Sequence record: MZ311865.1
Strand: one strand, 5' to 3'
DNA length: 64,000 nt
Source: Escherichia phage vB_EcoM_LNA2
Shown one piece after another: positions 1,853-60,414 of this stretch (the stretch's first letter is position 1; the number at the start of each line of letters is the position of its first letter). The notes under the pieces were generated by a model. It searched no databases, had not been told where the DNA came from, and worked only from the letters and a program-made list of their open reading frames with translations. Made by a program: the position numbers and the translations under genes.

Positions 1853-4800
1853 ATGGCCGACATCAAACGTAAGTTCAGAGCCGAAGACGGTCTGGACGCC
1901 GGTGGCGACAAGATTGTTAACGTAGCATTAGCCGACCGTACAGTAGGTACTGATGGCGTAAACGTTGACTTCCTGGTACAAGAAAACACCGTTCAAGTAT
2001 ATGATTCTACGCGTGGATATAACAAAGGATTTGTTGTTCTTTATGACAACCGTTTATATCAAGCAATAAATGATATCGTGTCTCCTTCCGGGGCATTTAA
2101 CCTTTTACAATGGCGTGCAGTTCGTACCGATGCACAATGGATAACTGTAGCTTCTGGGTCTTATCAACTTTCTTCAGGTGAATCGATTTCGGTTAACACT
2201 GGTGCCGGCAATGATATGGTTTTCACGTTGCCAAATGCGCCGGTTGATGGTGACACTATTGTTTTGGCTGATATTGGTGGAAGAACCGGGGCAGTTAAAG
2301 TACAGATTAACGCGTCTGTGCAGAGTATTTTAAACTTTAGAGGCGAACAAGTTCGTACAGTTTTAATGACGCGTCCGCGTTCACAACTAGTGTTTGTGTT
2401 TAGTAATCGTTTGTGGCAGATGTATATTACCGATTATGGTAAAGAATCAATCACTGTTACACCTGCTACACCATATCAAGCGCAAGCAAACGATTTTATT
2501 GTTCTTCGTTTTACTAGTGCAGCACCAATCAACATTACACTTCCACGTAATGCTAACAATGGTGATATAATCAGCCTAGTTGATTTAGATAAATTAAACC
2601 CACTGTATCATACGATTATTAAAACATTTGATGATACAACGTCTATTGGCGAAGTCGGGACTCATATCGTCGAAGGTAGAACTTCTTCTGACGCGTTTTT
2701 TGTTTTTGATGCTGCAAATAGTTTATGGCGTATATGGGAAGGCGACCAGAAATCACGTCTTCGTATTATCCGTACAGATTCAAATATTCGCCCAAATGAA
2801 GAAGTTCTTATTTTTGGTACAAATAACGCTACAGCAGAAACTATTAACCTTACGCTTCCTACAGGAATTTTGACCGGTGACACTGTTAAAATTTCAATGA
2901 ACTACATGCGTAAAGGCCAAACAGTAAAAATTAAAGCTGCCGAAGGTGATACAATTGCTTCTTCTGTTGCATTACTTCAGTTCCCTAAACGTTCTGAATA
3001 TCCACCTGATGCTCAATGGGTCTCTGTTACTGAACTAGAATTCAATGGCACTACTTCATATGTTCCTGTATTAGAATTAGCGTATATCGAAGACACCGAT
3101 TCTGACACTCATTATTGGGTTGTGCAACAGAATGTCCCTACGGTAGAACGTGTTGATGCTGGAACTGATGCTACACGAGCTCGTTTAGGTGTTATTGCTC
3201 TTGCTACTCAAGCGCAAGCAAATGTTGATTTAGAGAATACTCCAGCTAAAGAAGTGGCTATTACTCCTGAAACTTTGGCAAATCGTACAGCAACTGAAGC
3301 TCGACGTGGTATCGCTAAAATTGCTACAACAGCACAAGTTAACCAGAATTCCACAGCATCATTTGTGGACGATACTATTGTTACGCCTAAAAAACTAAAT
3401 GAGCGTACAGCAACTGAAACTCGTCGTGGTCTTGCTGAAATTGCTACTCAGGCTGAAACCGATGCTGGTCTTGATGACACAACGATTATTACACCTAAGA
3501 AATTGCAGGCACGTCAGGGCTCTGAAACACTATCTGGTATAGTTAAATATGTATCAACTACTTCTGCTACACCTGCCGCGACTCGTGGAGCTGCAGGCAC
3601 TAATGTTTATAATAAAGACACAACCACGTTAACTATTTCTCCTAAAGCCCTTGACCAATATAAAGCAACTTATGCTCAACAAGGTGCAGTAATTTTAGCT
3701 GTTGATAGTGAAGTAATTGCTGGTCAATCACAAGCAGGTTATTCTCACGCTGTAGTAACTCCTGAAACACTACATAAGAAAACTTCTACTGATGGACGTA
3801 TTGGTTTAATTGAAATTGCTACGCAAGCAGAAACTAATGCTGGGACTGATTATACACGTGCAGTAACGCCTAAGACGTTAAATGATAGGAAAGCTACGGA
3901 AGGATTATCCGGCATAGCCGAACTTGCTACGCAAGTTGAATTTGATACTGGAACTGATGATACTCGTATCTCGACTCCACTGAAAATTAAAACTCATTTT
4001 GATTCTTCTGACCGTACCAGTGTTAATTCTGATTCCGGACTTATTGAAGAAGGAACCTTGTGGAACCATTATACTCTTGATATTTCTAAAGCAAATGAAA
4101 CACAACGTGGTACACTTCGCGTAGCGACCCAGGCAGAATCTAATGCAGGAACTTTAGATGATGTTCTTATTACTCCTAAAAAGCTTTTAGGGACTAAGTC
4201 CACTGAAACGTCTGAAGGCGTAATTAAGGTTGCTACTCAGGCTGAAACTGTAACAGGAACTTCTGCTAATACTGCTGTATCTCCTAAGAATTTAAAATGG
4301 ATTGTCCAGTCTGAACCAACATGGGCTGCTACTACGGCGATTCGTGGATTCGTTAAAACTTCATCCGGTTCTATTACATTCGTTGGTAATGATACAGTTG
4401 GTTCAACACAACCTTTAGAATCATATGAAAAAAATAGCTATGCTATATCTCCATATGAATTAAACCGTGTACTTGCTAACTATTTGCCATTGAAAGCTAA
4501 AGCAGTAGATAGTAATTTATTAGATGGTCTAGATTCATCTCAGTTCATTCGTAGGGATATTGCACAGACGGTTAATGGTTCACTAACCTTAACCCAACAA
4601 ACGAATCTGAGTGCCCCTCTTGTATCATCTAGTACTGCTACGTTTGGTGGTTCAGTTTCGGCAAATAGTACATTGACTATTTCTAACACTGGAACGACTT
4701 CTTCTCGATTTACATTTGAGAAAGGTCCTGCTTCTGGTAGTAATGCTGATTCTGCATTGTATGTTCGTGTATGGGGTAATAAGTACAGCGGCGGTTCTGA

Positions 4801-7603: not shown

Positions 7604-10600
7604 ATGGCTACATTAAAACAGATACAATTTAAAAGAAGCAAAGTAGCAGGAGTTAATCCTACTGCAGCACAATTAGCCGAAGGCGAATTAGCGATAAACT
7701 TAAAAGATCGAACTCTTTTTACTAAAGATGACCTCGGTAATATTATTAGCCTAGGCTTTGCTAAGGGCGGGGATATTAACGGTAATGTAACTCAAAATGG
7801 AGATTATTTACAGAACGGTACATATAATCTCAATGGAAACCAGTTTGTTTATGCAGGAAAATATATTGAATTTTTACCTAAAACTGCAGGCAATGGTGCT
7901 TGGGCTAACCAACATCTGAATAAAGCTCCTATCTTTACAGATTTGAGTTCAACTACTTCTGTTTCAGAATATCATCCGCTGATTAAACAACGCTATAAAG
8001 ATGGAACTTTTTCTGTTGGTACGTTAGTAAACGAAGGAAGTTTTAAAATTCATTTTATGAATGAATCTGGTGATTCGAAATATTGGACGTTTCGCCGTGA
8101 CGGTGGATTTACTGTTGATGGTGGAGGTTTAGCAGTATCAGGAGGTAGTATAACTACATCTGGAAATATTGCAGCTCTCGGAAATATTACTTCGCCTCAG
8201 ATTAATACTAAAAATATTATTTTAGACACAAAAGCATTTGGACAATACGATTCGCAATCATTAGTTCAATATGTTTATCCTGGAACAGGCGAAGAAAATG
8301 GTGTAAACTATCTTCGTAAAGTTCGCGCTAAATCAGGCGGAACTATTTACCACGAAATCGCTTCAGCTCAAACCGGTAAGAATGATGAAATTTCTTGGTG
8401 GACCGGAAATACACTTACTACTAAATTAATGGGCCTTCGTAATGATGGCGCAATGGTATTACGTCGTTCGCTTGCTATTGGCACAATTACCACTGACGAA
8501 AATACTAATAACTATGGCTCTCCTACTCCAATGGGAGAAAGATATATTGCTTTGGGCGATGCTGCCACTGGTTTAAAATACATTAAGCAGGGTGTTTATG
8601 ATTTAGTAGGTAATTGGAATTCTGTTGCTTCTATTACTCCAGATAGTTTCCGTAGTACTCGTAAAGGTATATTTGGCCGTTCCGAGGACCAAGGTGGAAC
8701 ATGGATAATGCCGGGAACCAATGCTGCTCTCTTGTCTGTTCAAACACAAGCTGATAATAACAATGCTGGAGACGGACAAACTCATATCGGGTACAACGCT
8801 GGCGGTAAAATGAACCACTATTTCCGCGGTACTGGTCAGATGAATATCAATACCCAACAAGGTATGAAAATTAACCCGGGTATTTTGAAACTGGTAACTG
8901 GCGGTGAAAGTATTAGCTTTAATGCCGCAACTGGAAGTATTAATTCTACATTAGCTTTTCGTCTTAATAAAGGCATAATTATTGATGGACCTGATAATCA
9001 GGGATTCCAGTTTAACGCCCCGACGGCTGCAGATGGTACTAGAAGTATATACTGGAACAGTGGTACTCGCGCAGGTCAAAACAAAATCCCTGTTACAGTT
9101 AAAGTGTGGGGTAATTCATTTAACGCATCTGGCGATCGTTCTCGTGAAACGGTTTTTGAAGTAGCTGATGGGCAAGGTTACCATTTTTATTCTCAACGCG
9201 TAGCTCCTGCTCCTGGTTCTACCGTCGGACCTATTCAATTTCGAGTTAATGGTGGTTTATTAACTTCAGGTAGTATTGTTACTTCTGGTTCTATTACAAC
9301 TGAATCTTCTTTAAGTGTTAATAATGGCATGTCAGTAAACGGACAAGCTAAATTCGGTGGAACAGCTGATGCATTAAGAATTTGGAATGCTGAATACGGC
9401 GCAATTTTCCGTCGTTCAGAAGCATCATTATATATTATCCCGACTCCTAAAGATGCTGGAGAATCAGGCGGTATAAGTAATCTTAGACCATTGATAATAG
9501 AACTGAACACTGGCACAGTTAAAATGTCGCATGATGTTCATTTAGGAGATTCTGGATCTGGTACAGGATTATTACAAGTAAGTAATAGTCTTAAAACTAT
9601 TAAAATGATATGTCCAGTAACTATTACTGAACGTAATGCAGCGCTTACTCTAGATTCTCCTTCATCTTCTTCTGCTAATTATTTACAGGGTTCTAAAGCT
9701 GGAACTAGAACGTGGTATGTTGGTCTTGGTGGCTCTGGAAATGATTTATCACTTTATAGTCAATCTTATGGACACGGTCTTGTTATAAGCGATAATTTCG
9801 TGGCAATCAGTAAACCTCTTAAAGTTGGAAATGCTCAATTCGGTACTGATGGTAACATTACTGGTGGTTCTGGTAATTTTGCTAACTTGAATACCACAAT
9901 AAATAACCTTAAGACGGATATTGTGTCGAGTTACCCAATTGGTGCTCCGATTCCTTGGCCTACTGATACACCTCCTGAAGGTTATGCCATAATGGAAGGT
10001 CAAACATTTGATGCTGGCTTGTATCCTAAGTTAGCTGCGGTGTATCCTTCCGGCACTCTGCCTGATATGCGTGGTCAAACTATCAAGGGTAAACCATCTG
10101 GGCGTGCTGTATTAAGTACAGAAGCGGACGGCGTTAAGTCACATAGCCATAGTGCAAGTGCATCAAGCACAGATTTGGGTACTAAAACTACGTCAAGCTT
10201 TGATTATGGTACTAAGACGACAAGTAGCTTCGACTATGGTACTAAGACCAGTAATACCACTGGTAACCATAACCATACCGTGAGTGGTAATACTGGTTCC
10301 GCTGGTGCGCACCAACACGCGCGTTCAGGTCCTCAGGTACAAGGCGGCATACCCACTAGCGTATTCTATGATGGATACAATAGTGCTGGTCCAAACGGCA
10401 ACGCTAAATTCACTGCAACCGTGAGCGGTGCTACTGCATCGTCGAATATGGCCAAAACTTCTTCAGACGGCGCCCACACCCATAGTTGGTCAGGAACTAC
10501 TAGCGCTACTGGTAACCATGCTCATACTGTGGGTATTGGTGCTCATACCCATTCGGTAGGTATTGGTGCCCACTCTCATTCGGTAGCGATTGGTTCTCAT

Positions 10601-19964: not shown

Positions 19965-22178
19965 TTATTTGGCCGCTTCCACGGCCTTCATGAATTTAAC
20001 GATTTGAGCGACCTGTTCTTTAGAAAGAGTACCACGTCGTCCCATGTATTCTGACACAATATGATAATTGGTTTCAAATTCAATAACCATTTTATCATCA
20101 TTATCGTAAGCATTATCTTTAAGCTTATCGAAAATTTTAGCACACAATTCTAACTTCTTATTCAGATCTCTGTTAGTAGCACCCGAGAATCGATTCCAAC
20201 CCCAACGATTATTTACTGTTGAAAGTTTTGCAAAATCTTTACTGATTTCTTTGTTCTTAGAGCTAAAATACTTACTAAGGAAGTTAAGCTCTTCATTACG
20301 AGTAATATGATTCAAATAAGGCTGTGCTCTACGACTTGGTGATACATACTCATCATAATCCACTTTATCAATTAGCGTAATATAGTCGTTAATTGATTTT
20401 TCGAACAAGCATTCTACTTCACCAAGTTTACGAACTTTCTTAGCAATCTGTGGACGAACTACAGTGAACTCTTTAATACCTGACAAATCAGCAATACGGG
20501 TCAAGAAATTGGAGTCATAGTTCAACCAACCTTTATCTGCGTCAAGACATTCAGCATTAGAACGATTACGAACTATAGCATAACCTTGGATTTCATCAGC
20601 TTCACTCGCTGGAATAAAGAGATCTTCTAATACCCAAACATCGTTTTCATTCTTAAAGAACCGATGAGCACTTGGAGATTTAGGACGAGGCTCATTAGTT
20701 CGTTTCCTGACTTCAATCCATGGTTTAACGATTTGTAAAAGCTCTGAAGTCTTGTACATGTTAATGCTATCGCCATCAAAGATAACTTTAAGGCGTTCCA
20801 GAAGTTTCATTGCATCTTCGTCTGTAGGGTCAACGAATAGTACGCTTTTACCAAAACCGCGTGGAACTTTACCGGTTAATTTAACCTCGTCTTTAGACAT
20901 TTCAATTGAATTAAGAGCTCGCATTAATGGAACGCGTCCCTTAACGTCGTCAATAACAATTTCAACGTTTTTAATGTTAATGCCAATCAGACTGTTAATT
21001 GAAATGGTTGCCGTTGAGCTACCGCTTTCACGAATACGACGAAGACGAGGGGATTCAACGATATCGTATACGACACCAAGATTACACCACTCAGGCCCCA
21101 TTTTAAAACGTTTGTACAACTCAGAATAAGTTAGTTGTTCTTTAGAGTATTTCAGTGATTCAATATTAGACCCGGCCTTTTCCATGTATTTACGAGCGGT
21201 ATAGCCAAGAGAATCAATTTCACGGAACACATGACGTGGGTATTTACAATCAATCCATTTCTTAGAATCTTCAGCAAATAATTTTGCATCGATTTCTGCA
21301 ACACGTTTATGGATATTTGCTACTGTACGTTTATCAAATGACAATGCTTCACGAGACGGGGCTACATCTAGTTCACCCATAGGGAATTTAATATAAGCTG
21401 TAGTGCATCGCGTCATCATCCATGTTTGTTCTTTAATAACACTTCCGATTGGATATACAATACCACCATAAACAGCCATGATATTACCACGTTCACCCCA
21501 TGGAGCTTCCTTGGCCAAATATACATCGTCAAATTCTGGGAAGTATTTGATATCTTTAACACCGCGAACTTCTGCAATATCACCTAGAGGACGCATAACA
21601 TATGCAATTTCAGATGCGAACTTTTCAAAATCTTCTGGGTTAACCGGTACAACTACTTCTACACCCGTACGGTCATCAGGGCCCATCTTATCTACAAAGG
21701 TTGGCTTAATCTGTGGACCACTGTCATCTTGGTAGATTACGTAACCACGAACTTCACCATTGTGATAAGACGTAAGGTTAAACGTATCAGTATATGCTAG
21801 CGGAGCTTTAGAGCCGAGTCCGAATCCACCAATGAAATCGTTACTCGATGTTTTAGTTGAAGCAAAATATGAGTTATAGATTCCTGGCTCTTCGTCATTA
21901 CCTCGAATGGTGAAATCACTCATACCAGGACCAAAGTCTCGAACTACAAAACGTGGGTCTAAACGACCTGGAGCCTGAACAATAAACTTATCAGTGCAAC
22001 CGTTAAGAATTTGTCCATCGATACAGTTTGTAATTAATTCACGTACACAAGCCAATTCTTTGTTTGTATAAAGGTCATTAGACAAAATCTTATAAACTTT
22101 GCTATTGCCTTGAATAGTAAATGCTGTGCTCTTACCGCCTGAACCAATAATCGTTTCTTTAGCCGTTTCAATAATCAT
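19965..22178 (-). CDS. rIIA: rIIA protein
   Basis: 737 aa; MIIETAKETIIGSGGKS...ELITNCIDGQILNG (GHKL-like N-term) matches recalled T4 rIIA. Confidence 0.9.
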   Translation of the reverse strand: MIIETAKETIIGSGGKSTAFTIQGNSKVYKILSNDLYTNKELACVRELITNCIDGQILNGCTDKFIVQAPGRLDPRFVVRDFGPGMSDFTIRGNDEEPGIYNSYFASTKTSSNDFIGGFGLGSKAPLAYTDTFNLTSYHNGEVRGYVIYQDDSGPQIKPTFVDKMGPDDRTGVEVVVPVNPEDFEKFASEIAYVMRPLGDIAEVRGVKDIKYFPEFDDVYLAKEAPWGERGNIMAVYGGIVYPIGSVIKEQTWMMTRCTTAYIKFPMGELDVAPSREALSFDKRTVANIHKRVAEIDAKLFAEDSKKWIDCKYPRHVFREIDSLGYTARKYMEKAGSNIESLKYSKEQLTYSELYKRFKMGPEWCNLGVVYDIVESPRLRRIRESGSSTATISINSLIGINIKNVEIVIDDVKGRVPLMRALNSIEMSKDEVKLTGKVPRGFGKSVLFVDPTDEDAMKLLERLKVIFDGDSINMYKTSELLQIVKPWIEVRKRTNEPRPKSPSAHRFFKNENDVWVLEDLFIPASEADEIQGYAIVRNRSNAECLDADKGWLNYDSNFLTRIADLSGIKEFTVVRPQIAKKVRKLGEVECLFEKSINDYITLIDKVDYDEYVSPSRRAQPYLNHITRNEELNFLSKYFSSKNKEISKDFAKLSTVNNRWGWNRFSGATNRDLNKKLELCAKIFDKLKDNAYDNDDKMVIEFETNYHIVSEYMGRRGTLSKEQVAQIVKFMKAVEAAK

Positions 22179-22190: not shown

Positions 22191-22391
22191 TCACAAGTTA
22201 CGTTTAAAAATTTCTGCCACTTCGAGAAGTTCTTCTTTAGTAGCTGTATCGGTTTGTATTTTATATCGAATTTCTTTAAAGCGTTCTTTAAAGGACTCTG
22301 CTGACTCGATATCAAAAAATCTTTGGATAAGCCGGAATTCCCGGAGCACTGCTTTATCAAAAAGTTCCAAGTCCACGTTATATGTTCTCAT
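22191..22391 (-). CDS. hypothetical protein (rIIA.1 position)
   Basis: 66-aa ORF immediately upstream of rIIA. Confidence 0.5.
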   Translation of the reverse strand: MRTYNVDLELFDKAVLREFRLIQRFFDIESAESFKERFKEIRYKIQTDTATKEELLEVAEIFKRNL

Positions 22392-22483: not shown

Positions 22484-23584
22484 TTACGCTGTGAAGATTT
22501 TATCCCACATCGCAACAACTGCATCTCGATTATACTTCTTCCATACTGCTTCAGCACGTTTAACTCGAGCTTCGTATGTGTCAGTGAATTCTAATACAGC
22601 TTTTGTGTAAAGCGCAACTACTTCTTTCTTAGGAGTAGAGGAATCAATTTCTACACGCACAGTATCTGGGTCGTATTCGAATGTCGCATGAGGATAATCC
22701 TTAAAAACTAACTGGATTACAGGGACACCTTTAGAGATGGCTTCAATAGAACTATTCTCTACCGTACCTGTGTCAGGACACGTATTAATAAGTGCTTTAG
22801 CTGTTTTAAGACGTTCCATAATTTCACTGTGTGGAGCATCAATAATAACAGGATATTTAGCCGGTGGCGCCCATTTACTAGGACAGTATCCTACACCATT
22901 TTCGCCTAGTGCTTTAATCGCTTCAAGAGCAACATCAGTACGACGCATTTTAGTGTCATAACGTTGTGCACTAATAATCAGATCCGTCGCCGGAAGAACT
23001 TCTGGCTTTTCAGTCAAACAAATAACCGGATAATCTTCGGCTTCAAACAACGGATTTGCTCGCCAATAATCATAATCAATTTTGTCAGTCAGACCTGAAG
23101 TCATATAACAATATTTGCGTTCAAATTCACGGAAGGCTTTAGTAGGAGCATAGCTCTTCCCACCATTCTTATGAATTTGAATAGTCTGGTCCCAAATTTG
23201 AACAATGCCACGAGATACTGGTTCAAATGGTGTTGCCATAAAATTCTTATGAACTTTAGAGAGACCTGCGTCTTTAATTGCCTGAACGGTTAGTTTAGTC
23301 GGTTCCATAGTAACAACAAAATCGTATTCATGGATGCCGGCTAGTTCAACAATCTTACGAGCCATAGTATAACTCATACCTAGACTGAATTTTGTCAGAT
23401 GACCAACAGGATGATGATTAACTTTCCAATCACCAAATGTGTCATTATCAAAACCGATATAATCAATATCAGCACCGATGGACACAAGATATTTCAACAC
23501 GTTCAAATGAACCGCTTCAAGACCACCTTGTACACGTTCTGGGTTAAATGGGACTGCACGAGATGGGATAAACATAACTTTCAT
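22484..23584 (-). CDS. GT-B fold glycosyltransferase, candidate hmC-DNA (arabinosyl)transferase
   Basis: 366 aa; C-terminal GTVENSSIEAISKGVPVI resembles GT-B donor-binding motif; occupies T4 gene 60/mobA slot between rIIA.1 and 39. Confidence 0.6.
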   Translation of the reverse strand: MKVMFIPSRAVPFNPERVQGGLEAVHLNVLKYLVSIGADIDYIGFDNDTFGDWKVNHHPVGHLTKFSLGMSYTMARKIVELAGIHEYDFVVTMEPTKLTVQAIKDAGLSKVHKNFMATPFEPVSRGIVQIWDQTIQIHKNGGKSYAPTKAFREFERKYCYMTSGLTDKIDYDYWRANPLFEAEDYPVICLTEKPEVLPATDLIISAQRYDTKMRRTDVALEAIKALGENGVGYCPSKWAPPAKYPVIIDAPHSEIMERLKTAKALINTCPDTGTVENSSIEAISKGVPVIQLVFKDYPHATFEYDPDTVRVEIDSSTPKKEVVALYTKAVLEFTDTYEARVKRAEAVWKKYNRDAVVAMWDKIFTA

Positions 23585-23610: not shown

Positions 23611-23628
23611 AAGCTCCCGAAGGAGCTT
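23611..23628 (-). terminator. UUCG-tetraloop RNA hairpin at 3' end of gene 39
   Basis: Plus AAGCTCC-CGAA-GGAGCTT; on minus strand followed by A/T-rich run. Confidence 0.45.
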
Positions 23629-25444
23629 AGGACATCCATTCTTTACGAAGTTCTGAATCATCACCCATCAACATTTCAAAGAGTTCTTTCCAATTTTCAG
23701 GAAGTTTAACTACGTCGTACACAGGGTTCTGAATCATTTCACGATATTCTGACTTTTCAAGGGAGCCTAATCCCTTGATGTATCGAATACTGTGCTTAGG
23801 CAGTGTATCTTTAACTTCTTCGTACTCAGCCACAGTATAAAACCATTTTTGAGTTTTGCCAATTTGTGCAATAATTACAGGCGTTTTAACAAAGCGAATA
23901 CGTCCTTGTTCAAACAATTCAGGCCAATTACTAAAGAAAGCAAGCAAAGCCGGATAGATACTTCCAAGACCGTCATGATCGGCATCGGTCATAATTGCAA
24001 TATTACGATAGTTCGTATTCTCTGCCTTTTCACCAAGAATAAGACCCGTGATAGCACAGATATCAAAGAGCTCTTTGTTCTTCATCATATCAGCATATGA
24101 CATACCCCAGCTATTCATCACCTTACCACGTAATGGGAATCCACCGTGTAGTTCACGGTCACGAACATCAATGAGATAACCAATTGCCGAATCACCTTCT
24201 GTTAAGAACAATGTCGTATCTGCATCTTTACCGCATTGGTTAGCTTTAATATGCTTATGAACCTTAGCTTTAGTTGCCTTTTTAGCTGCTTTAGTTTCTG
24301 CAGCCTTTTCTGCTGCCAATTTACGAGCTAATGCTGCTTCAACAATAGGCATAATCAAGGCTTCGTTTTTAAGAAGTGCCTGAGCAATTTTCTTAGCATC
24401 TAATTGGATATGATTACGAATATCACCATACGTTGACGTTAAACGTTCTTTAGTCTGAGAATCAAAACGCATGTTGCTCATGTCTCTAATAAACATCAAC
24501 ATTGTGAGACATTCTTTAACACGAGCTTTAGTGACTTCAATACCCTTATATTTCTTTTTAATACCAGGCAAAAGATGTTCGCAGATATCATCCATTACAC
24601 ATTCAACATGATGACCACCATTTTTAGTATGGATGTTATTCACGTAAGTTAAATGACGGAAGCCATCTGGTGATGTTGTGAATGCCATAGAGACTCTATC
24701 GTTTTCTTGAATGATGTTATCTTCGCCAAATTGTTTAGCAAATCGTTTAAAATTACCATCAACCTTTTTACCATTAAATGTGAACTTGATATCAGGATAA
24801 ACGACTGCCAATGTTTGAAGTCGGTCTAAAGTAATATCTAAATAAATTTGAGATAAATTATGCTCTTCAAATGAAGAGAAATCAGGAGTGAAGATTACTT
24901 TAGTGCCTTTACCTTTAGATTTCTTAGAAGACCATGATTTGTTTTCCATTCCGTTTGAACAGTTAACAGTGATTTCATTTTCGCCATCTGACGTGATGCC
25001 TGTAAACAACGTAGAGAAGATATTAGTTAAACTACTCCCGACGCCGTTCATACCACCAGTCTTGCGTTCAGAGTCATCACCAAAGTTACCACCAGCCTTT
25101 GGAATAGTCCAGGCTGCTACAGGCCCAGGAATTTGTTCACCTGTTTGGTCGGTAACTAAACCTTGAGGAATACCACGTCCGTTATCTTCCACTGAGACTT
25201 GATTATTTTTAATTTGCACATCGATTTTATTTGCAAACTTAAATGATGTACGAATAGCTTCATCAACCGAGTTGTCAATAATCTCATCGATTAATTTAAC
25301 CAGACCAGGAACATATTCAACTTGTTGATATTTGCCAAACAAAAAACGCTCATGTGCTTCTTTAGCAGAAGAACCAATATACATACCACTACGTTTCTTA
25401 ATATGTTCTACATCTGACAATACCTTAATTTCATTTTTAATCAT
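23627..25444 (-). CDS. 39: DNA topoisomerase II large subunit, fused gp39+gp60
   Basis: 605 aa GyrB-like ATPase (MIKNEIKVLSDVEHIKKRSGMYIGSS...); continuous ORF, unlike T4 split genes 39 and 60. Confidence 0.9.
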   Translation of the reverse strand: MIKNEIKVLSDVEHIKKRSGMYIGSSAKEAHERFLFGKYQQVEYVPGLVKLIDEIIDNSVDEAIRTSFKFANKIDVQIKNNQVSVEDNGRGIPQGLVTDQTGEQIPGPVAAWTIPKAGGNFGDDSERKTGGMNGVGSSLTNIFSTLFTGITSDGENEITVNCSNGMENKSWSSKKSKGKGTKVIFTPDFSSFEEHNLSQIYLDITLDRLQTLAVVYPDIKFTFNGKKVDGNFKRFAKQFGEDNIIQENDRVSMAFTTSPDGFRHLTYVNNIHTKNGGHHVECVMDDICEHLLPGIKKKYKGIEVTKARVKECLTMLMFIRDMSNMRFDSQTKERLTSTYGDIRNHIQLDAKKIAQALLKNEALIMPIVEAALARKLAAEKAAETKAAKKATKAKVHKHIKANQCGKDADTTLFLTEGDSAIGYLIDVRDRELHGGFPLRGKVMNSWGMSYADMMKNKELFDICAITGLILGEKAENTNYRNIAIMTDADHDGLGSIYPALLAFFSNWPELFEQGRIRFVKTPVIIAQIGKTQKWFYTVAEYEEVKDTLPKHSIRYIKGLGSLEKSEYREMIQNPVYDVVKLPENWKELFEMLMGDDSELRKEWMS

Positions 25445-25485: not shown

Positions 25486-25507
25486 AAAGCAAAAAGGGCC
25501 GAAGCCC
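25486..25507 (-). terminator. short UUCG hairpin + U-run
   Basis: Plus GGGC-CGAA-GCCC preceded by AAAAA; minus strand hairpin then TTTTT. Confidence 0.4.
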
Positions 25508-25951
25508 TTATTTAAATTTAATTTTCTGAAGTGCATCAATTGCAGCTAAACGCCCTTGTTCACTTTTAACTGTAATGACCACATCGCCTGATACGATCAC
25601 CGAACCATCAACAAATTCTATAGAGCCTTTTTTGAAATCGACAGCTGTATCTGGTTCCGGAACTTCTTCAAAGAATTTAAATTCTGCACCATAAATCAGA
25701 ATATCACCTTGCATACTAATGATTGTACGTCTAGGTCCATCGGTTTCAGCGGCAATCATTGAAACACCATAACCAATCATCTCTTCTACAATAAAATCTC
25801 TTGATAATAAAACTGTATGCAGAGTAGTGTTAAGACGTTTACCAGTTGTATTAAGAATTCTCAAGAAATTATCTTCTTGACCTTTGATAATACGATATTT
25901 CTTACCAACTTCAAAACCTTTAAAACCTTTAAAAGCCGTATTAAAAGCCAT
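25508..25951 (-). CDS. hypothetical early protein
   Basis: 147-aa ORF downstream of gene 39. Confidence 0.5.
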   Translation of the reverse strand: MAFNTAFKGFKGFEVGKKYRIIKGQEDNFLRILNTTGKRLNTTLHTVLLSRDFIVEEMIGYGVSMIAAETDGPRRTIISMQGDILIYGAEFKFFEEVPEPDTAVDFKKGSIEFVDGSVIVSGDVVITVKSEQGRLAAIDALQKIKFK

Positions 25952-35288: not shown

Positions 35289-35810
35289 TCAGTAACCATT
35301 ATCCTGGCGTTCAAAGTTGTGTTGGTTTTTCAAGTAGTAAAGTTTAAAGATTTCTTCAGCGGAAAGACCAAGACCTTGGAACATATTCAGAACAAAGTGC
35401 AGAATATCAATCATCTCGAATTTAATTTCGAGCTGGTCTTCAGGAGACAGTTCATCGATACGACGATTTCGATATTCAGCATGTTGAGCTTTCCAAGGCT
35501 TCCATACAGAGCTAGCGGCTTTTTCACCATTGCTCATACCACCAAGTGAAGTCAACAGTTCACGGAATTCATCATCAATATAATCTTTCTGATTACGCAG
35601 CCAATCAACAACATCGCCAGCAGTGGCCAATTCGTCAGGATGTTTGTTATGTTCAGGCTTATCATTTGCCAGACGAACCTGTAAAGATTTCTGCATATCA
35701 AGCATTACCTGCAGAGGGTCTTTATCTTCATGAATCAGAGCATTAAAATAAGCTTCTTCTGCTTTATCAACACCAGAAATAAGTTGTGAACATTCGTTAA
35801 AGTGCGCCAT
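35289..35810 (-). CDS. 56: dCTPase-dUTPase gp56
   Basis: Track ORF 35289..35825; start at ATG 35808-35810 (MAHFNEC...); DPLQVMLDMQ...ETAGDVV.W...DDEFRELLTSLG matches recalled T4 gp56. Confidence 0.85.
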   Translation of the reverse strand: MAHFNECSQLISGVDKAEEAYFNALIHEDKDPLQVMLDMQKSLQVRLANDKPEHNKHPDELATAGDVVDWLRNQKDYIDDEFRELLTSLGGMSNGEKAASSVWKPWKAQHAEYRNRRIDELSPEDQLEIKFEMIDILHFVLNMFQGLGLSAEEIFKLYYLKNQHNFERQDNGY

Positions 35811-43680: not shown

Positions 43681-44229
43681 TTAACGAGCCCATTTGATAA
43701 TTTCTGTAATCAAATTATTACGTTCGCTTGCATTAAATCCTATAACTTTGTTAGCACCATCATGATTAAGTAATTGATACGTTTGGATTTCGTTATGAAT
43801 TGCAAACTCTTCAAAATATGAAATGACTGTATTAAAACCAAATGAAGACAAAGTAATAAGGTCGTCTTCAAAACTTTCAGTCATTTCGTTACGTGTTAAA
43901 ATAATTGTGAACACATCATGGTTTTGGCAAAGACGAACATAGTCCTGTTCATAAACGTCAAGAACCGAGTCCGCATCTTGTCGAATACGTCCGTAAACCC
44001 AGTTACTAATATATCCACGGTCTAATAGATAAATCTTAGTAGGGTCTAAATAATTCAACATCGTTTCGAAACAGCCAACTTCATTTCGAGACTTAACATC
44101 GAAACGTCCATCAACTGTTCGTTTAGGGAAATCAATCTTTACATATCTTTCACTAATTTCCATTATGTCATTAATGAAAGTTGTTTTACCAGCATTATCT
44201 GGGCCATCTACTAAAATAATTTTAGCCAT
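43681..44229 (-). CDS. P-loop NTPase / small kinase-like protein
   Basis: 182 aa; Walker A LVDGPDNAGKTT at N-terminus; occupies T4 uvsX-beta-gt interval. Confidence 0.5.
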   Translation of the reverse strand: MAKIILVDGPDNAGKTTFINDIMEISERYVKIDFPKRTVDGRFDVKSRNEVGCFETMLNYLDPTKIYLLDRGYISNWVYGRIRQDADSVLDVYEQDYVRLCQNHDVFTIILTRNEMTESFEDDLITLSSFGFNTVISYFEEFAIHNEIQTYQLLNHDGANKVIGFNASERNNLITEIIKWAR

Positions 44230-44230
44230 T

Positions 44231-45130
44231 TTATTCCTCGATTACGACATCTTCATATTTAGGTATATTATACGGTGAAGAAATTAAAGCGTTAAAGTAG
44301 ATGAACTCACCAAGACCTGGATGGAATACTTCTTCAGGATTTTCGAAATATTGAATTTTCGGACGTCCTTTAAGAATTTGATAGTACTCAGTTTTAGTTG
44401 GTTTAAAAATTCGAATCAACGCTTCTTCAGGATACTTATTTCTGTCGAAGCTATTATTTGGATCGGTTATATAAAGCGGTTGACCTAATTGAATTGCGCA
44501 TTCAACAACTTGTTCAAAACGATAGCATGGGTCACTAATTCGAAATGGATGAAAAATACCATCTAGATGAATAGGAGCCAAATCACCTACAAGACGCTGC
44601 ATGATGGAAGGACGTATAACTTTCTGCGTTACGATAATCTTATTACCATCTGCACCAGCGTTAACCAGCACTTCTTTTTGACGTTCATTCAACACAGTAG
44701 TTTGAAGTGAACGATTAACCGACAACATATCGGTTTTTAAGAATTCGTCAATATAAAAACGTGGTTTATTAGGGTCTGCAGTGATATTGAAATTGAATTC
44801 CGCATCAAAAGCGCCGTCATATCCAGTGATATCTGTGATTAGAAAATCACAGTCATAATAAGCAATTAATGAATCAACCACAAATTCATTTTCAGACCAG
44901 AAATATTTACGAGTGTTATACGCGTTATCTTTATACCATAATGGAACAAACTTAAATTCTGGAAAAAGACGTTCGCATTCTTTAATATCAGATGCATTAC
45001 GTGGATATGTAATCACATCACCCGGATTAGCACGGTGCAAATGAAGTTGGAAGTTGCCATCCTTAAGGATAGCATACTGTCCAGTTTCATAAGACCGCAT
45101 ACTCAAGATAGGTACGCGGAAAATAGCCAT
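44231..45130 (-). CDS. hypothetical protein in beta-glucosyltransferase slot
   Basis: 299 aa between uvsX and gene 42 where T4 has beta-gt; no resemblance to recalled T4 beta-gt. Confidence 0.5.
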   Translation of the reverse strand: MAIFRVPILSMRSYETGQYAILKDGNFQLHLHRANPGDVITYPRNASDIKECERLFPEFKFVPLWYKDNAYNTRKYFWSENEFVVDSLIAYYDCDFLITDITGYDGAFDAEFNFNITADPNKPRFYIDEFLKTDMLSVNRSLQTTVLNERQKEVLVNAGADGNKIIVTQKVIRPSIMQRLVGDLAPIHLDGIFHPFRISDPCYRFEQVVECAIQLGQPLYITDPNNSFDRNKYPEEALIRIFKPTKTEYYQILKGRPKIQYFENPEEVFHPGLGEFIYFNALISSPYNIPKYEDVVIEE

Positions 45131-45846
45131 TAGTCAAGGAATCCTTTAACATAATCAAAATCACGTTCAAACACATGGGCACTTACCATGGTATGAGTAT
45201 AATCACCAACTTCTACACCACATTCTTTAGCGATATAATGAAGTAATTTTCCTTGGAGATAAAAATCCAACTGCATAACAACAGCACAGTTCTGAGAACG
45301 CATATGACAGTGGGTATAAAGCTTACCATCACGAATATAATAAGTCACTGAGTCAGTACATGGATATTCAAGTGTTTCGTCCGAATCAAGCAAAGCCTGA
45401 TCAGAACTTTCTAGAATTTGGAACACAACTCTTCGAGAGTTAGGCTTCTCTTTAAGTTCTTTTAGAAGAGCTGGTAATTGGGCCGCAATGCGAGGACCAT
45501 AGAAAGTGTTGAAGTTCGCCGGCAAAACATCTGATTTTGGTTTAGAAATAAATTTAGCGACATTAGGATATGCCTTAAACGCTTCTTCTGCGTTGGTACC
45601 ACCAGAAATCATAAACTTCCAGAAGTCTTCGGCATATTCATAAGAGATGCGGTTAATACGTGGGTCGGTCATTTTGAATGATGATGGAGTGTCAACAACT
45701 ACTGTCATAGACCCAATTTCATTACAACGTCCAATACGAGAATCAGTTACGAATTCCGGGTTTTCTAAAATTTCACGATTGACAGCTTTAAATGCGGATT
45801 GAAAATCTGCGGCTTTAATATATTTCATTGTGTTATGTTTTCCCAT
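45130..45846 (-). CDS. 42: dCMP hydroxymethylase gp42 (thymidylate-synthase fold)
   Basis: 238 aa; YPCTDSVTYYIRDGKLYTHCHMRSQN resembles TS/dCH catalytic-Cys region; conserved position. Confidence 0.75.
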   Translation of the reverse strand: MGKHNTMKYIKAADFQSAFKAVNREILENPEFVTDSRIGRCNEIGSMTVVVDTPSSFKMTDPRINRISYEYAEDFWKFMISGGTNAEEAFKAYPNVAKFISKPKSDVLPANFNTFYGPRIAAQLPALLKELKEKPNSRRVVFQILESSDQALLDSDETLEYPCTDSVTYYIRDGKLYTHCHMRSQNCAVVMQLDFYLQGKLLHYIAKECGVEVGDYTHTMVSAHVFERDFDYVKGFLD

Positions 45847-45978: not shown

Positions 45979-46128
45979 TTACAGTTGAACAGGTTCTTTA
46001 ATCACTTTAGCCGCTTTAGTTTCAAACAGGCCCATCAGGGCCTTTTTAAGAATTTGTTCGTTAGTGTTCAGTTTCGTAGTCAAAATCTCTTCATTAAGTT
46101 GGTGGTTAAAAGTTTTTCTAGAAATCAT
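45979..46128 (-). CDS. small protein (49 aa) coupled to Cys-rich enzyme gene
   Basis: Hand-translated MISRKTFNHQLNEEILTTKLNTNEQILKKALMGLFETKAAKVIKEPVQL; ATGA overlap with upstream gene. Confidence 0.3.
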   Translation of the reverse strand: MISRKTFNHQLNEEILTTKLNTNEQILKKALMGLFETKAAKVIKEPVQL

Positions 46129-47285
46129 TCCGGGTACCTCAAAGCGTCATCAGAGTTAGTTATATCAATAATAGATATAGAGTTTTCTGATAACCCATTT
46201 TTAGATAACTGACGTTTATAATATCTTTCACAATATGTACACGTTGACCCACAGATTTCATTAGCACAATCGAAATCTGGATGTCTGAACCACCTTTTTT
46301 CTAAAAAGCCATCTAACAAAGAGGTTTCAATATTTACTGTATGTGAAAACTCAGTTTCGTTTTCAAGAGTGAAAATAGTCTCTAAAGGCTTCCACAGTTC
46401 TAACAAATTACCTTCAAACTTTTCAGAAGCGTATGCTTCAAGAACTTTCAAAATGTAGTCTGTGCTACCTGTACGTCCTGAAACTTTGAATTGAGTGATA
46501 CCAATATCATTATAAAGTTTCAAATCTTGAGGACGAACAAAACGAGTTCTCAACCAGTTAAATGGGTCTGTATCACGAGCTTTAATACAGTGCTGCATAG
46601 GATATCCGTTTAAGGATTTAGCATCATCAGCTGTAACATCAGTACTATGGAAAATATAGCAAGAGTCACGATAGCTACAATGTGTTGTATACCCTTTACC
46701 AGCATTAGAACAGAACTCATTTACAAGAACTTCAAATATTATATTGTTCTTATTACAAAACTCTGCTGCACGCTTCAGGAAAGAAACTGAACGGTTCTTA
46801 TGAATTCCACAGCAGACCTTTTTGATATTATATTGGTCGTGCAAGTATTTGATTTGAGTTACAGCATCGACATGTAGAATTGTTGAAACTTCAATCTCAA
46901 TGTCTTTATTGACTTCACGAACAATTTCCATAACAACAGGGTTAGCGATAGTAATACGCCATACGCCTATTGACCAAAGATACTGAACATAATCCTGAAT
47001 AGCTTTCTTCTTCCACTCAACTAGTTCTCTTTTTGAACCAGGATTTATCGTGTTGAGTGTATAGTTAAAGCAAATACCTAATTCGTTACAACGTTTAACG
47101 TAATCTTCTAACATCTTTTTGTCAACGTCAGGAAGCCTAAAATCAGGTCTGGCTGCTACAAAAGCCATTTCTCTTGTAGAGCCGTATACTTCGTTTATCA
47201 AGCTATTAGGATAAGTTTTATTGAGCTCTACGATTTTATCAAGAAGAGCTAAATCAAAATTCGTTCCGATTTTAAAAGTATTCAT
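46125..47285 (-). CDS. Cys-rich enzyme of unknown function (possible Fe-S/metal enzyme) in sugar cassette
   Basis: 386 aa; Cys clusters VCCGIHK, EFCSNAGKGYTTHCSYRDSC, C-terminal DCANEICGSTCTYC (CX3CX2C). Confidence 0.5.
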   Translation of the reverse strand: MNTFKIGTNFDLALLDKIVELNKTYPNSLINEVYGSTREMAFVAARPDFRLPDVDKKMLEDYVKRCNELGICFNYTLNTINPGSKRELVEWKKKAIQDYVQYLWSIGVWRITIANPVVMEIVREVNKDIEIEVSTILHVDAVTQIKYLHDQYNIKKVCCGIHKNRSVSFLKRAAEFCNKNNIIFEVLVNEFCSNAGKGYTTHCSYRDSCYIFHSTDVTADDAKSLNGYPMQHCIKARDTDPFNWLRTRFVRPQDLKLYNDIGITQFKVSGRTGSTDYILKVLEAYASEKFEGNLLELWKPLETIFTLENETEFSHTVNIETSLLDGFLEKRWFRHPDFDCANEICGSTCTYCERYYKRQLSKNGLSENSISIIDITNSDDALRYPE

Positions 47286-47343: not shown

Positions 47344-47745
47344 TTATAGATTCGGTTTATACGATTTAAATGTTTCGAATTCGCCTTTATTCATAAGAGC
47401 TTTGAATTCGTCAGGACGCATAGCTTTGTCGTCGATAATCCAATCATATACTGGTTTATGTGTTAGCAAATTATGGTACTTCAAGCCAATGTTTGCCAAG
47501 TTCTGAATCAGACTTGGGAGAATGTCAATTGCTATACGACCAGGACCTACTGACTTCATACCGCGAGCAGTGTAAAGCGTTATGGTATGCCCTGCATCAT
47601 ACAGAGCATTAATGGCAGACACCATTTCGGTGTCTGGTTTGAAGTTCACGTAATCACGATTGTTATTCCATTCCGTGATGCAATCATCGACATCAAAACA
47701 AAGATTAAGCATGTTTTCTACACGGTGCATTAGATTCGTTCCCAT
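47344..47745 (-). CDS. HAD-superfamily phosphatase (KdsC-like)
   Basis: 133 aa; motif I FDVDDCIT, motif II ITLYTARG, motif IV WIIDDK. Confidence 0.6.
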   Translation of the reverse strand: MGTNLMHRVENMLNLCFDVDDCITEWNNNRDYVNFKPDTEMVSAINALYDAGHTITLYTARGMKSVGPGRIAIDILPSLIQNLANIGLKYHNLLTHKPVYDWIIDDKAMRPDEFKALMNKGEFETFKSYKPNL

Positions 47746-49415
47746 TGATGAGTGATATCGCCACCGATTGGACGATAGGAAACACCAGTTTCTTTATCAG
47801 TTAGTACCCATTTACCAGGATTTTTTGTAATCAGAGTAGCCGTTACAGGTTCTGCTACGTCATAACTAATAGAGCCGTCTTGAAGTACACGGCCCATATT
47901 ACGTAATTGCTTAGTCAGAAGTTCCATACCTTTATAATATGCGGCTACCGCTTTAAGTGGATTATTCTTGAAATAACCACCTAATGCAATCCAGATAATT
48001 GCTACAGCCAAATGATGATACTCGTTAAACGAACTCATCTTTCCATATTTGTAAACTAGTGGATTGATGTTAATAGTCACATTACAAGTTGTTTCGTCAA
48101 TAGTAAACTGTCCCCAGGTCGGATTAGCGTTGAATTCATCATAACCTGAAACAGCATAAAGCACTTTAGCTTCATCGTACAATTTTGGCCCGTAAATCTT
48201 GGTTTCACCAAAATATCCACGAGGGTCGATAAACTTGACTTCGCCGTTATCAGTAATCATAGTATTACTGAAGTTCGGGTCGCCGTGAATAACAGAGTAC
48301 TGTCCCTGAGAACGGTTATGATAACGAATAAGGTGTTCTAAAGCTTGTTTCAGCATTGGCTTCAGACGTCCAATCTTAGTGTAGTTCACATGTGTGATTT
48401 TACCAAATGAATCAATCAATGGTTGAATGCTTTCACAACGATCAATAACTTTCGTATAGAATTCTTTAGTGAAATCACGACGAACAGTTTCAGGACTTAC
48501 AAAATAAGTGTCTGTGCTGAATTTCAGTGCATCTAAAATTGCACCAACAATTTGTGGACGAGCAAGACTTGATTTGGATTTAATATATTCAAATGCCGGC
48601 TTACCTTTAATGCGTTCCATTTCAAAGTTATTTTCATTAACAGAAACTAACTGAGGGACTGAATCTGATTTCACTTTAAGATACCATGAAATCTCATCTT
48701 TCTGAAGAGCTCGACCCTGTTCGGTTAATGCGAATTTAGTTACAGTTTCTTCACCAATTTCAACTGCATTAAAACTACGATTAAGTTCACGAACTTCATG
48801 AGCTTTTTCAAGTTTAGGCATATCACCTAAATCAATTAGATTCATAAGCTCTGATTTATTGAATGTGCTGCCGTAAAGGAATTCTACGAAATCACGTCCT
48901 TTGCAGTATTCATGAATTTCCTCATCAGTAGAACCCATATAGAATTCCCAGTCTTTGAACTGATAAATTCCTACAACATTACCACCTGTTGAACCTACGT
49001 TAGTGATATTTTCACCGTCGAAATTATATCGACATTCGTCACCCTTAACATAGATTGCGTTAACATTCCAAGACCATGAACCAAAATCGGGAATAATATC
49101 ACACCAGTTAACAATTACGTTATGGCCGTCTAAATCTTTGTGTAATTTAGCAAGAGCATAAGCAGAACCATACGCTTCATCAACTGTACGAATAGTCACA
49201 TTGAACTCTTCTTGCTCACAATAAGCTCGAACAGTTTCAGCAAATTTTGAATGAACTACTACAATAATTTCATCTGCGCCAAGGTCAGAATAAATTGTAT
49301 ACAAATTGCTCAGAATAGTGTCTTGTTTATAGTTAACAAGCACCTTAGGAATATGATGCGTTATTGGATACAAACGAGTTGCTAATCCAGCACCAAGAAT
49401 AACAGCTTTTTTCAT
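47730..49415 (-). CDS. bifunctional sugar-1-phosphate nucleotidyltransferase / anomeric sugar kinase
   Basis: 561 aa; N-term KAVILGAGLATRLYPIT (RmlA/GalU-type); C-term VIHGDPNFSNTMI...FIDPRG (APH/choline-kinase-like catalytic loop). Confidence 0.65.
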   Translation of the reverse strand: MKKAVILGAGLATRLYPITHHIPKVLVNYKQDTILSNLYTIYSDLGADEIIVVVHSKFAETVRAYCEQEEFNVTIRTVDEAYGSAYALAKLHKDLDGHNVIVNWCDIIPDFGSWSWNVNAIYVKGDECRYNFDGENITNVGSTGGNVVGIYQFKDWEFYMGSTDEEIHEYCKGRDFVEFLYGSTFNKSELMNLIDLGDMPKLEKAHEVRELNRSFNAVEIGEETVTKFALTEQGRALQKDEISWYLKVKSDSVPQLVSVNENNFEMERIKGKPAFEYIKSKSSLARPQIVGAILDALKFSTDTYFVSPETVRRDFTKEFYTKVIDRCESIQPLIDSFGKITHVNYTKIGRLKPMLKQALEHLIRYHNRSQGQYSVIHGDPNFSNTMITDNGEVKFIDPRGYFGETKIYGPKLYDEAKVLYAVSGYDEFNANPTWGQFTIDETTCNVTININPLVYKYGKMSSFNEYHHLAVAIIWIALGGYFKNNPLKAVAAYYKGMELLTKQLRNMGRVLQDGSISYDVAEPVTATLITKNPGKWVLTDKETGVSYRPIGGDITHQWERI

Positions 49416-49456: not shown

Positions 49457-49600
49457 CTAGTTAAAGCATTCATACTTTGCTTGTAGTCCAATCATAATCC
49501 ATCCAATTACAAGTGTTGGAATCATTACTGGAGCCGTTAAGCTCCAGTAGATAGTCATGGCAAGCATCAATAGTAAAAGTCCTATTGTTATTGCTTTCAT
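49457..49600 (-). CDS. small membrane protein (47 aa) inside sugar cassette
   Basis: Hand-translated MKAITIGLLLLMLAMTIYWSLTAPVMIPTLVIGWIMIGLQAKYECFN; start overlaps SIS gene stop. Confidence 0.3.
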   Translation of the reverse strand: MKAITIGLLLLMLAMTIYWSLTAPVMIPTLVIGWIMIGLQAKYECFN

Positions 49601-50232
49601 TGTTCGCCTCGTAACATGGCACCTAGTGCACCGCCTGGATGGAACTTAAGGAAGTCATTAGAGGTAAATCCACGTTCAGACGAAAGGTTGATAGCAAACG
49701 TATCGATAAGCGCTAACAACAATGTAGTGGACATAGTCGGAGCCAGAGAATTCTCATCAACCTCTACCGCGATGCCTGTACAGAAAGAGTAATCAAAAAG
49801 GGCTTCATTTTCTTGTGGAATGTCTGGGTTACAATGCAACAGAATCTGTTTGACGTTCGGTCGAATCATTTTAAGATGCTTAGCCACGCCTATCATTTCT
49901 TCAGTTTTACCAGAACGACTAATATGAATCAACACATCATTAGGCGCAATGAATCCTGCATCACCGTGAGAATAATGCCCAGTGTTCAAGTACATACTCG
50001 GGATACCGAGTGAAGCAAATGTCTCAGAAGCTTTAGTTGCAATATTAGCATTCTTACCAACACCTGTAATAATTACTCGGCTTTCATAATTACTAAGTCC
50101 CGGGCGTCGAAGAGTTTCTAGAATAGCATTATAACGAGCAGGGTTTTGACTAATTACTTTGGCCATAGCGGCCAAAGAAGAAGCTTGTTTTATGATTGCG
50201 TCAATAGCGATAGTAATAGGAGTAGTTTTCAT
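49597..50232 (-). CDS. SIS-domain sugar-phosphate isomerase (KdsD/GutQ-like arabinose-5-phosphate isomerase, no CBS domains)
   Basis: 211 aa; VIITGVGKNANIATKASETFASLG...LIHISRSGKTEE resembles SIS domain of API. Confidence 0.65.
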   Translation of the reverse strand: MKTTPITIAIDAIIKQASSLAAMAKVISQNPARYNAILETLRRPGLSNYESRVIITGVGKNANIATKASETFASLGIPSMYLNTGHYSHGDAGFIAPNDVLIHISRSGKTEEMIGVAKHLKMIRPNVKQILLHCNPDIPQENEALFDYSFCTGIAVEVDENSLAPTMSTTLLLALIDTFAINLSSERGFTSNDFLKFHPGGALGAMLRGEQ

Positions 50233-59625: not shown

Positions 59626-59670
59626 ATTATTTCCTCATTAGTTAATTCATTTTATCATCCGTTTATAAAG

Positions 59671-60413: not shown

Positions 60414-60414
60414 A

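Follow-up and report, generated by a model that had tools for sequence, protein, structure and literature searches.

Genomic context of the glycosyltransferase gene

The 64,000-nucleotide (nt) stretch of the genome of Escherichia phage vB_EcoM_LNA2 that we analyzed (sequence record MZ311865.1; hereafter, the window) encodes a 366-amino-acid (aa) GT-B glycosyltransferase (GT) that, by sequence identity, is the ortholog of RB69 ORF003c/gp3 and that we propose to be a UDP-arabinofuranose (UDP-Araf)-dependent DNA arabinofuranosyltransferase responsible for the second, beta-1,3-linked sugar. In the open reading frame (ORF) reading of the window, the gene spans 22484..23584 on the minus strand and starts with ATG, that is, it has the same position and length as in the first-pass annotation of this DNA, which was made from the sequence alone. 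That annotation placed the gene between rIIA.1 and a fused topoisomerase gene, and both flanks were recovered by ORF reading and a tblastn search with the T4 proteins: rIIA.1 (about 22191-22391; 71% identity to T4 rIIA.1), with rIIA at 19974-22178, on one side, and, on the other side, the 605-aa fused gene 39/60 topoisomerase (23627..25444) that matches, in a single frame, residues 1-473 of T4 gp39 and then residues 27-174 of gp60. The 3.5 kb surrounding the GT gene shows 98-99% DNA identity to approximately 145 Mosigvirus genomes (for example, APCEc01, JS09 and mar005P1); the window is a Mosigvirus, that is, an RB69-like phage.

The topoisomerase stop codon and the GT start are separated by a 42-nt spacer with an AAGG ribosome-binding site and a UUCG-tetraloop hairpin (AAGCTCC-TTCG-GGAGCTT; 23611..23628, minus strand) that was detected by a scan for terminator-like structures and by direct reading of the sequence; the hairpin has a perfect 7-bp stem, directly follows the topoisomerase stop codon and lies 27 nt before the GT start. 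A promoter scan for sigma-70-like sites, which is uninformative on T4-type middle promoters, detected none in the spacer upstream of the GT gene, and such sites were rarer in the scan than in shuffled sequence. Because the spacer has no promoter-like site, the GT gene and gene 39 probably share a transcript, as far as the sequence allows one to judge. A second GC-rich hairpin (AAGGGC-TTCG-GCCCTT) is located at 25494-25509, upstream of gene 39; both hairpins are possibly RNA-stability or processing elements.

In a tblastn comparison with the whole window, T4 alpha-gt and beta-gt produced no match at 22484-23584 and best E-values of 1.4-2.9, so the earlier statement that neither gene has a recognizable homolog here stands. 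The T4 alpha-gt/mobB slot, which lies between genes 47 and 55, is shrunk to approximately 1 kb (59625-60626), and tblastn with the T4 proteins detected no GT homolog in it. A variant of the GT locus is found in Shigella phage JK45 (MK962757.1), where the full 366-aa gene is followed by a 136-aa ORF that matches its 3' part (locus 2691-3101), an arrangement that amounts to a partial tandem duplication of about 500 bp between the GT gene and rIIA.1; this record is classed as Tequatrovirus, yet the locus is Mosigvirus-like.

Identity, family and fold of the 366-aa protein

The 366-aa protein is identical to its counterpart in phage mogra (100%) and shows 98.9% aa identity to RB69ORF003c (NP_861693), as well as 98% identity to the proteins in two PDB entries, 9iqz ('phage HY126 glycosyltransferase') and 9ir0 (the same with UDP), both released on 2025-07-16. 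These structures presumably originate from the work of He et al. 2026 (Nat Chem Biol). The first-pass annotation mentioned a proposal that linked a GT at this locus to RB69 arabinosylation; this proposal is traceable to Thomas et al. 2018 (PMC6024577), who picked ORF003c as the candidate RB69 arabinosyltransferase using custom hidden Markov models (HMMs) and HHpred, on the basis of its likeness to T4 alpha-GT, which extends to the T4 GTs at the profile-profile level only, and of conserved phosphate-binding Gly and Arg residues. The ortholog in the Bas47 record, in the same position, is annotated as 'putative hmC-arabinosyltransferase' (hmC, 5-hydroxymethylcytosine), and RB69 gp3 is labelled 'beta-arabinosyltransferase 2' in the current literature (NAR 2026). 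Thus, the gene itself is already known from the literature and the PDB, and what has been recovered here is RB69 ORF003c once more.

The protein matches PHROG 8302 ('unknown function') end to end (residues 1-366, E = 1.5e-222). No family was found for it in Pfam-A or in NCBIfam at E <= 10, membership in CAZy GT4 or Pfam Glycos_transf_1 could not be demonstrated with sequence models, and a sequence search of the PDB with the family profile retrieved no glycosyltransferase other than 9iqz. Since the Pfam, NCBIfam and PDB profile searches gave no named family, it is only by comparison of folds that the protein is tied to the GT-B class. An AlphaFold2 (AF2) model built from an alignment of six sequences (predicted local distance difference test (pLDDT) score of 61, a moderate confidence) shows beta-alpha alternation in two halves, and a Foldseek search with this model yielded 213 PDB matches at E <= 1e-3, headed by 9iqz/9ir0 and followed by BshA, PimA, GtfA, WaaG and MshA. 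Together with the crystal structure of a 98% identical protein, these matches establish that the 366-aa protein adopts the GT-B fold, as the first-pass annotation had called it.

The C-terminal donor-binding-like motif pointed out in that annotation, GTVENSSIEAISKGVPVI, corresponds to residues 273-290, and no other block is as well conserved in the family. Across 12 family members, the block follows the invariant pattern T-G-T-x-E276-x-x-S-x-E281-A-I-x-x-G-x-P-V, with G273, T274, E276, S279, E281, A282, I283, G286, P288 and V289 among the invariant residues. The acidic pair E276/E281 is spaced E-x4-E, compared with E-x7-E in GT4, and counting back 8 positions from E281 along the sequence leads to G273 (a linear count, not a structural alignment). 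G20-G21, R208 and R214 are invariant in the same 12 members as well, which is consistent with phosphate binding, and the title of the ortholog structure 9ir0 (98% identity), 'with UDP', points to binding of a UDP donor.

The family is very narrow, and deep searches add no context. A word-indexed search for homologs found 5 clusters and an exhaustive profile search found 12 members among 1.84 billion representatives, whereas a scan of IMG/VR recovered 7 loci, 3 of them of the Mosigvirus type (98-100% identity) and 4 of the Acinetobacter-phage type (approximately 40-43%); the distant members sit on contigs of 1.5-4.5 kb. The family comprises 211 phage records with matches to the 366-aa protein, and given these records, the end-to-end PHROG match and the crystal structure of the nearly identical protein, the ORF is not a chance one.

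DNA chemistry and the arabinosylation cassette

The first-pass annotation took hmC to be the acceptor base, but this is not what Mosigvirus DNA contains. Using tandem mass spectrometry (MS/MS) and nuclear magnetic resonance (NMR), Lee et al. (NAR 2026; PMC13326640) found that RB69 DNA contains mono- and di-arabinosylated 5-hydroxy-2'-deoxycytidine, the disaccharide being beta-D-Araf-(1->3)-alpha-D-Araf-O5-cytosine; in DLP3 DNA, a third Araf is added through a beta-1,5 linkage, and the 5-hydroxyl is made on dCMP by a ThyA homolog, RB69 gp48 (PMC13326640). The same combination of mono-arabinosylated and di-arabinosylated forms is present in the DNA of Mosigvirus NP according to the Durham-collection paper (PMC13390438). 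Mosigvirus DNA thus carries mono-/di-arabinofuranosyl 5-hydroxycytosine (5hoC), with Araf ether-linked to the base in RB69 and NP, and not arabinosyl-hmC (NAR 2026, AEM 2026).

The window encodes the matching enzyme. In the position of T4 gene 42, at 45130..45846 on the minus strand, lies a ThyA-family gene (Pfam Thymidylat_synt) whose product we take, from the literature on RB69 gp48, to be the dCMP 5-hydroxylase, or 5-hydroxy-2'-deoxycytidine monophosphate (5hodCMP) synthase. Along its full length of 238 residues, this protein is near-identical to a chain solved in PDB 9iqc/9ir2 under the deposited name 'Thymidylate synthase' (phmmer E = 2e-160); in our reading, the 9iqc chain is the 5hodCMP hydroxylase of HY126, the crystal structure of which is known, a link to HY126 that is itself indirect. 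With 5hoC derivatives in the DNA and a ThyA-like protein of the 9iqc type, the acceptor is not the hmC on which GTs of the T4 type act, and the label 'hmC arabinosyltransferase', as in the Bas47 GenBank record, is outdated with respect to the base and, for the reasons given below, probably with respect to the step as well. A dCTPase, the homolog of T4 gp56 that clears dCTP from the pool, is encoded at 35292..35810 on the minus strand (tblastn with T4 gp56, 72% identity, E = 5e-83).

The sugar-nucleotide cassette that the first-pass annotation placed at 46-50 kb is real, given the Pfam matches to Peptidase_U32, NTP_transferase plus kinase, and SIS domains. It is located downstream of the DNA polymerase gene, with the genes in the order SIS, NTP-transferase plus kinase, HAD-like, U32, ThyA-family, a 299-aa protein, a 182-aa kinase-like protein and uvsX. 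All cassette genes discussed here are on the minus strand. The first is the 211-aa SIS-domain arabinose-5-phosphate isomerase (49597..50232; the equivalent of RB69 gp55, assigned from Pfam SIS and the literature), followed by the 561-aa bifunctional sugar-1-phosphate nucleotidyltransferase and kinase (47730..49415; RB69 gp52:53, HY126 AfhE), in which Pfam recognizes NTP_transferase next to a kinase-like C-terminus and which, according to the literature, makes UDP-arabinofuranose. The 133-aa HAD-like phosphatase (47344..47745; RB69 gp51, HY126 AfhF) has no Pfam match and is assigned by its position in the cassette, its function being taken from the literature, where homologs of AfhE and AfhF have been shown to synthesize UDP-Araf. 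The next gene encodes a 386-aa Peptidase_U32-family protein (46125..47285; RB69 gp50; PF01136, E = 7e-11, with a weak match to UbiU). At the far end, the 182-aa nucleotide kinase-like protein (43681..44229; RB69 gp45), again with no Pfam match, has the position and size of the kinase in the DLP1/DLP3 cassettes, and its assignment follows NAR 2026, Table 1.

A second, unrelated GT-B candidate

The first-pass annotation considered a single transferase and missed a second gene, at 44231..45130 on the minus strand, for a 299-aa protein with a predicted GT-B fold (the equivalent of RB69 gp46:47 and DLP3 gp79). This gene occupies the slot of T4 beta-gt, with the gene 42 homolog on one side and uvsX on the other. 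The protein shows 99% identity to RB69 gp46:47, which is split in the RB69 record, and 45.9% identity to DLP3 gp79. Pfam gave no match for it, but its AF2 model, built with 34 homologs, reaches a pLDDT of 94, and a Foldseek search with this model retrieves UDP-GlcNAc 2-epimerases, MshA, sucrose-phosphate synthase and HepE, as well as 9ir0. There is no detectable homology between the 299-aa and 366-aa proteins at the level of sequences (BLASTP E = 3) or profiles (profile-profile probability of 0.4%); hence, with the fold of the smaller protein taken from its model, the window encodes two unrelated GT-B candidates rather than one. A recent duplication as the origin of the two phage GT-B families was considered as well and is ruled out by the same profile-profile comparison. 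The 299-aa protein is likely to be the base-proximal transferase, that is, a candidate for the enzyme that attaches the first (alpha) arabinose.

Phyletic distribution and assignment of the two transfer steps

The two families differ in their spread. By tblastn, the 299-aa protein, for which there are at least 138 protein clusters, has matches in 348 phage records, from phages of Escherichia, Acinetobacter, Klebsiella, Serratia, Enterobacter, Proteus, Yersinia, Edwardsiella, Pectobacterium and Shewanella, and it was found in every arabinosylating lineage that was checked. The 211 records with the 366-aa type come from Mosigviruses labelled Escherichia, Shigella or 'Enterobacteria', from 55 Acinetobacter phages, each of which has two copies, and from one Tegunavirus record. 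The lineages that carry the 366-aa type are a subset of the carriers of the 299-aa type (by counts of organism names, not record by record; 55 versus 57 for Acinetobacter), and, by the same counts, the 366-aa family occurs only alongside the 5hoC/UDP-Araf cassette. In the lone Tegunavirus-labelled record, the homolog has less than 60% identity to the 366-aa protein; six cassette-bearing Yersinia TG1-like records have no such homolog.

This confinement to phages with the cassette speaks against an acceptor other than DNA, for example, a glycan of the host envelope or some protein, with the 366-aa gene merely travelling with the T4-like early genes. Although the nearest structural neighbors of the protein, PimA, BshA and WaaG, are lipid, small-molecule and polysaccharide GTs, and the Mosigvirus gene is approximately 21 kb away from the cassette, in Acinetobacter phages the gene is inside the cassette, and homologs of the protein act on DNA in vitro, so that we consider a non-DNA acceptor highly improbable. 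In DLP1 and DLP3, both paralogs of the 366-aa family adjoin the genes for the kinase, the GT of the 299-aa type and the ThyA-like protein.

Among the few phages with measured chemistry, the copy number of the 366-aa family tracks the number of sugars. Two mono-arabinosylated phages, namely, Thanatos (so described, with a single ara-GT) and Serratia phage LC53 (represented in the database searched), have no copy; RB69, NP and Bas47, all di-arabinosylated, have one (Bas46 is likewise reported to be di-arabinosylated); and the tri-arabinosylated DLP3 has two, gp76 and gp77. The 366-aa protein aligns with DLP3 gp77 at 42.6% identity (E = 1e-109) and with gp76 at 40.3% identity (E = 2e-98). Together, gp76 and gp77 have been reported to transfer arabinose from UDP-Araf onto RB69 DNA in vitro, and no DLP3 GT was active on 5hoC DNA.

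These observations bear directly on the idea of Thomas et al. 2018 and of the first-pass annotation, restated here with 5hoC in place of hmC, that the 366-aa protein is the initiating transferase that sets the first (alpha) Araf on the 5-hydroxyl of cytosine, the 299-aa protein having some other role, for example, in sugar-nucleotide metabolism. Apart from the HHpred likeness to T4 alpha-GT and the Gly and Arg residues invoked in that study (PMC6024577), the crystallization of the HY126 ortholog, a GT, with UDP fits such a role, as do the pyrophosphorylase-type activity of the Thanatos 299-aa homolog in vitro and the failure to observe transferase activity for DLP3 gp79. However, Thanatos, LC53 and approximately 130 other cassette-bearing phage records have no 366-aa homolog, and because it is absent there, another enzyme must make the base-sugar bond in phages of the Thanatos/LC53 type; the sole other protein with a GT fold in the cassette is the 299-aa one. 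Furthermore, the DLP3 homologs of the 366-aa protein are inactive on 5hoC DNA. We thus regard the initiating role as unlikely. The part of the earlier interpretation that stands is that the 366-aa protein is a GT-B enzyme of a phage DNA-arabinosylation system; the acceptor base has to be replaced, and the assignment of the protein to the step that sets the pentose on the base is probably wrong, given that the 299-aa GT-B protein is present also in mono-arabinosylated phages that have no 366-aa homolog.

From the phyletic distribution and the biochemistry of the DLP3 homologs, we infer that the 366-aa protein is probably the UDP-Araf-dependent beta-1,3 arabinofuranosyltransferase that adds the second sugar, whereas the base-sugar bond is made by the 299-aa protein. 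Several points weigh against this assignment. The phages whose DNA chemistry has been measured, on which the phyletic argument is built, are few. The 299-aa protein is no more than a candidate for the first step: DLP3 gp79 is inactive on 5hoC DNA in vitro, and TH1_063, the homolog in Thanatos, was reported to be a UDP-xylose pyrophosphorylase in vitro. As for the extension step, DLP3 gp76 and gp77 are mutually dependent, and the sugar that they add is the third (beta-1,5) rather than the second one. Finally, in a neighbor-joining tree, Mosigvirus gp3 falls outside the gp76/gp77 duplication (the two DLP3 proteins are sister paralogs with 57% identity), so that step-for-step orthology cannot be claimed. 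Because gp76 and gp77 are sisters and gp3 lies outside both, the 366-aa family as a whole is best described as 'extending' transferases.

The dependence of the DLP3 GTs on partner proteins and the mixture, in virions, of cytosines with one and with two arabinoses could also be accommodated by a promiscuous or processive 366-aa enzyme that makes both transfers in Mosigvirus, the mixture being what a single distributive enzyme would yield, with the 299-aa protein redundant or an accessory subunit. We consider such an arrangement quite improbable. The first sugar is alpha-linked, to a phenol-like oxygen, and the second is attached through a beta-1,3 bond, to the hydroxyl of a sugar; in glycosyltransferase enzymology, it is unusual for one active site to give both anomeric outcomes. 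The nesting of the phyletic pattern of one family within that of the other is also better matched by a division of labor.

The proposed pathway and its significance

Under the proposed division of labor, the ThyA-like hydroxylase would bring about the replacement of deoxycytidine by 5-hydroxydeoxycytidine, and the genes at 46-50 kb would convert ribulose-5-phosphate to UDP-D-arabinofuranose. The 299-aa GT-B protein (44231..45130) would then attach the first, alpha-linked Araf to the 5-oxygen of cytosine, and the 366-aa enzyme would transfer the second Araf from UDP-Araf onto O3 of the first sugar in DNA, yielding beta-D-Araf-(1->3)-alpha-D-Araf-O5-cytosine. The resulting thicker sugar coat may provide extra protection from DNA-targeting host defenses. 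For several components of this scheme, others have provided the demonstration on orthologs or homologs: the DNA chemistry, the 5hodCMP synthase, the synthesis of UDP-Araf, the UDP in the crystal and the extension by the DLP3 homologs.

More speculatively, and with rather little confidence, it can be suggested that the Mosigvirus enzyme acts alone, for example, as a homodimer in place of the gp76/gp77 pair, and extends only a subset of the arabinosyl-cytosines that is defined by sequence or context. If so, the mixture of singly and doubly arabinosylated cytosines in virions would not reflect incomplete chemistry but would be a second layer of DNA marking, patterned and site-specific.

The number of arabinoses attached (one, two or three) has been reported to alter which restriction, CRISPR and glycosylase defenses a phage escapes, and because of this reported effect, the gene that sets the second sugar would be a practical determinant of the host range and of the ease with which therapeutic Mosigviruses are sequenced and engineered. 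According to a second-hand account, Bas46 became sensitive to a defense system upon deletion of a gene named there only as 'the arabinosyltransferase Aat'. The value of the present analysis is corrective, as it concerns the base, which is 5hoC rather than hmC, the probable step and the overlooked 299-aa GT-B protein.

The U32-family protein of the cassette

The U32 protein (46125-47285) shows unusual conservation and is found at 80% identity or higher in 221 phage records that come from phages of Enterobacterales and Shewanella. Acinetobacter is not among the listed genera, and the gene is missing from the cassettes of DLP1 and DLP3. Acinetobacter is a strict aerobe. In the cassette of Serratia phage 92A1 (locus 7632-8801 and 9019-9276), a chorismate mutase gene separates the U32 gene from the ThyA-like one, and the LC53 record also annotates a chorismate mutase adjoining the U32 gene. 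The bacterial U32 proteins RlhA and TrhP are prephenate-linked factors for 5-hydroxycytidine (ho5C) in rRNA and 5-hydroxyuridine (ho5U) in tRNA, respectively (PMC5727448, PMC6599085), and UbiU is, by its NCBIfam name, an anaerobic ubiquinone hydroxylase; all three have been characterized as O2-independent, prephenate-linked hydroxylation factors. The NAR 2026 paper (PMC13326640) calls the phage protein a 'sugar or heterocycle reductase' and mentions neither U32 nor prephenate. The analogy with the bacterial proteins suggests an idea absent from that paper, namely, that the U32 protein might provide an O2-independent route to 5hoC in anaerobic hosts.

Comparison with known systems

RB69 ORF003c/gp3 and the HY126 ortholog (9iqz, 9ir0) are the same gene as the one analyzed here, with 98-99% identity, equal length and the same position between rIIA.1 and gene 39; the 4-8 substitutions that separate them carry no functional distinction. 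DLP3 gp76 and gp77 belong to the same family end to end (40-43% identity) and share G20-G21, R208, R214 and the TGTVEN-S-EAIS-G-PV block. They differ from the Mosigvirus protein in that they are paired paralogs, encoded inside the cassette and adding the third sugar (beta-1,5), whereas the Mosigvirus gene is single and located 21 kb away; the duplication that produced gp76 and gp77 occurred after the split from the Mosigvirus lineage.

At the level of fold, the protein resembles GT4-type enzymes, such as PimA, BshA, MshA and WaaG, in which the nucleotide-binding C-terminal helix motif is found in the same place. It is distinguished from these enzymes by the E276-x4-E281 spacing as it reads in the linear sequence, by the lack of a Pfam or NCBIfam match and by the predicted acceptor, which is a DNA-linked sugar.

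There is a parallel in logic with the T4 alpha-GT and beta-GT and with the beta-alpha-glucosyltransferase of T2/T6 that produces gentiobiosyl-hmC: in all these cases, a GT-B enzyme uses a UDP-sugar to decorate a modified cytosine in duplex DNA after replication. There is no detectable sequence homology between the 366-aa protein and T4 alpha-GT (GT72) or beta-GT (GT63), and the chemistry differs as well, with 5-hydroxycytosine and D-arabinofuranose here compared with hmC and glucose in the T4-type systems. By analogy, the 366-aa enzyme appears to be most like the second of the T2/T6 enzymes, in that it would extend a sugar that is already present on the base.

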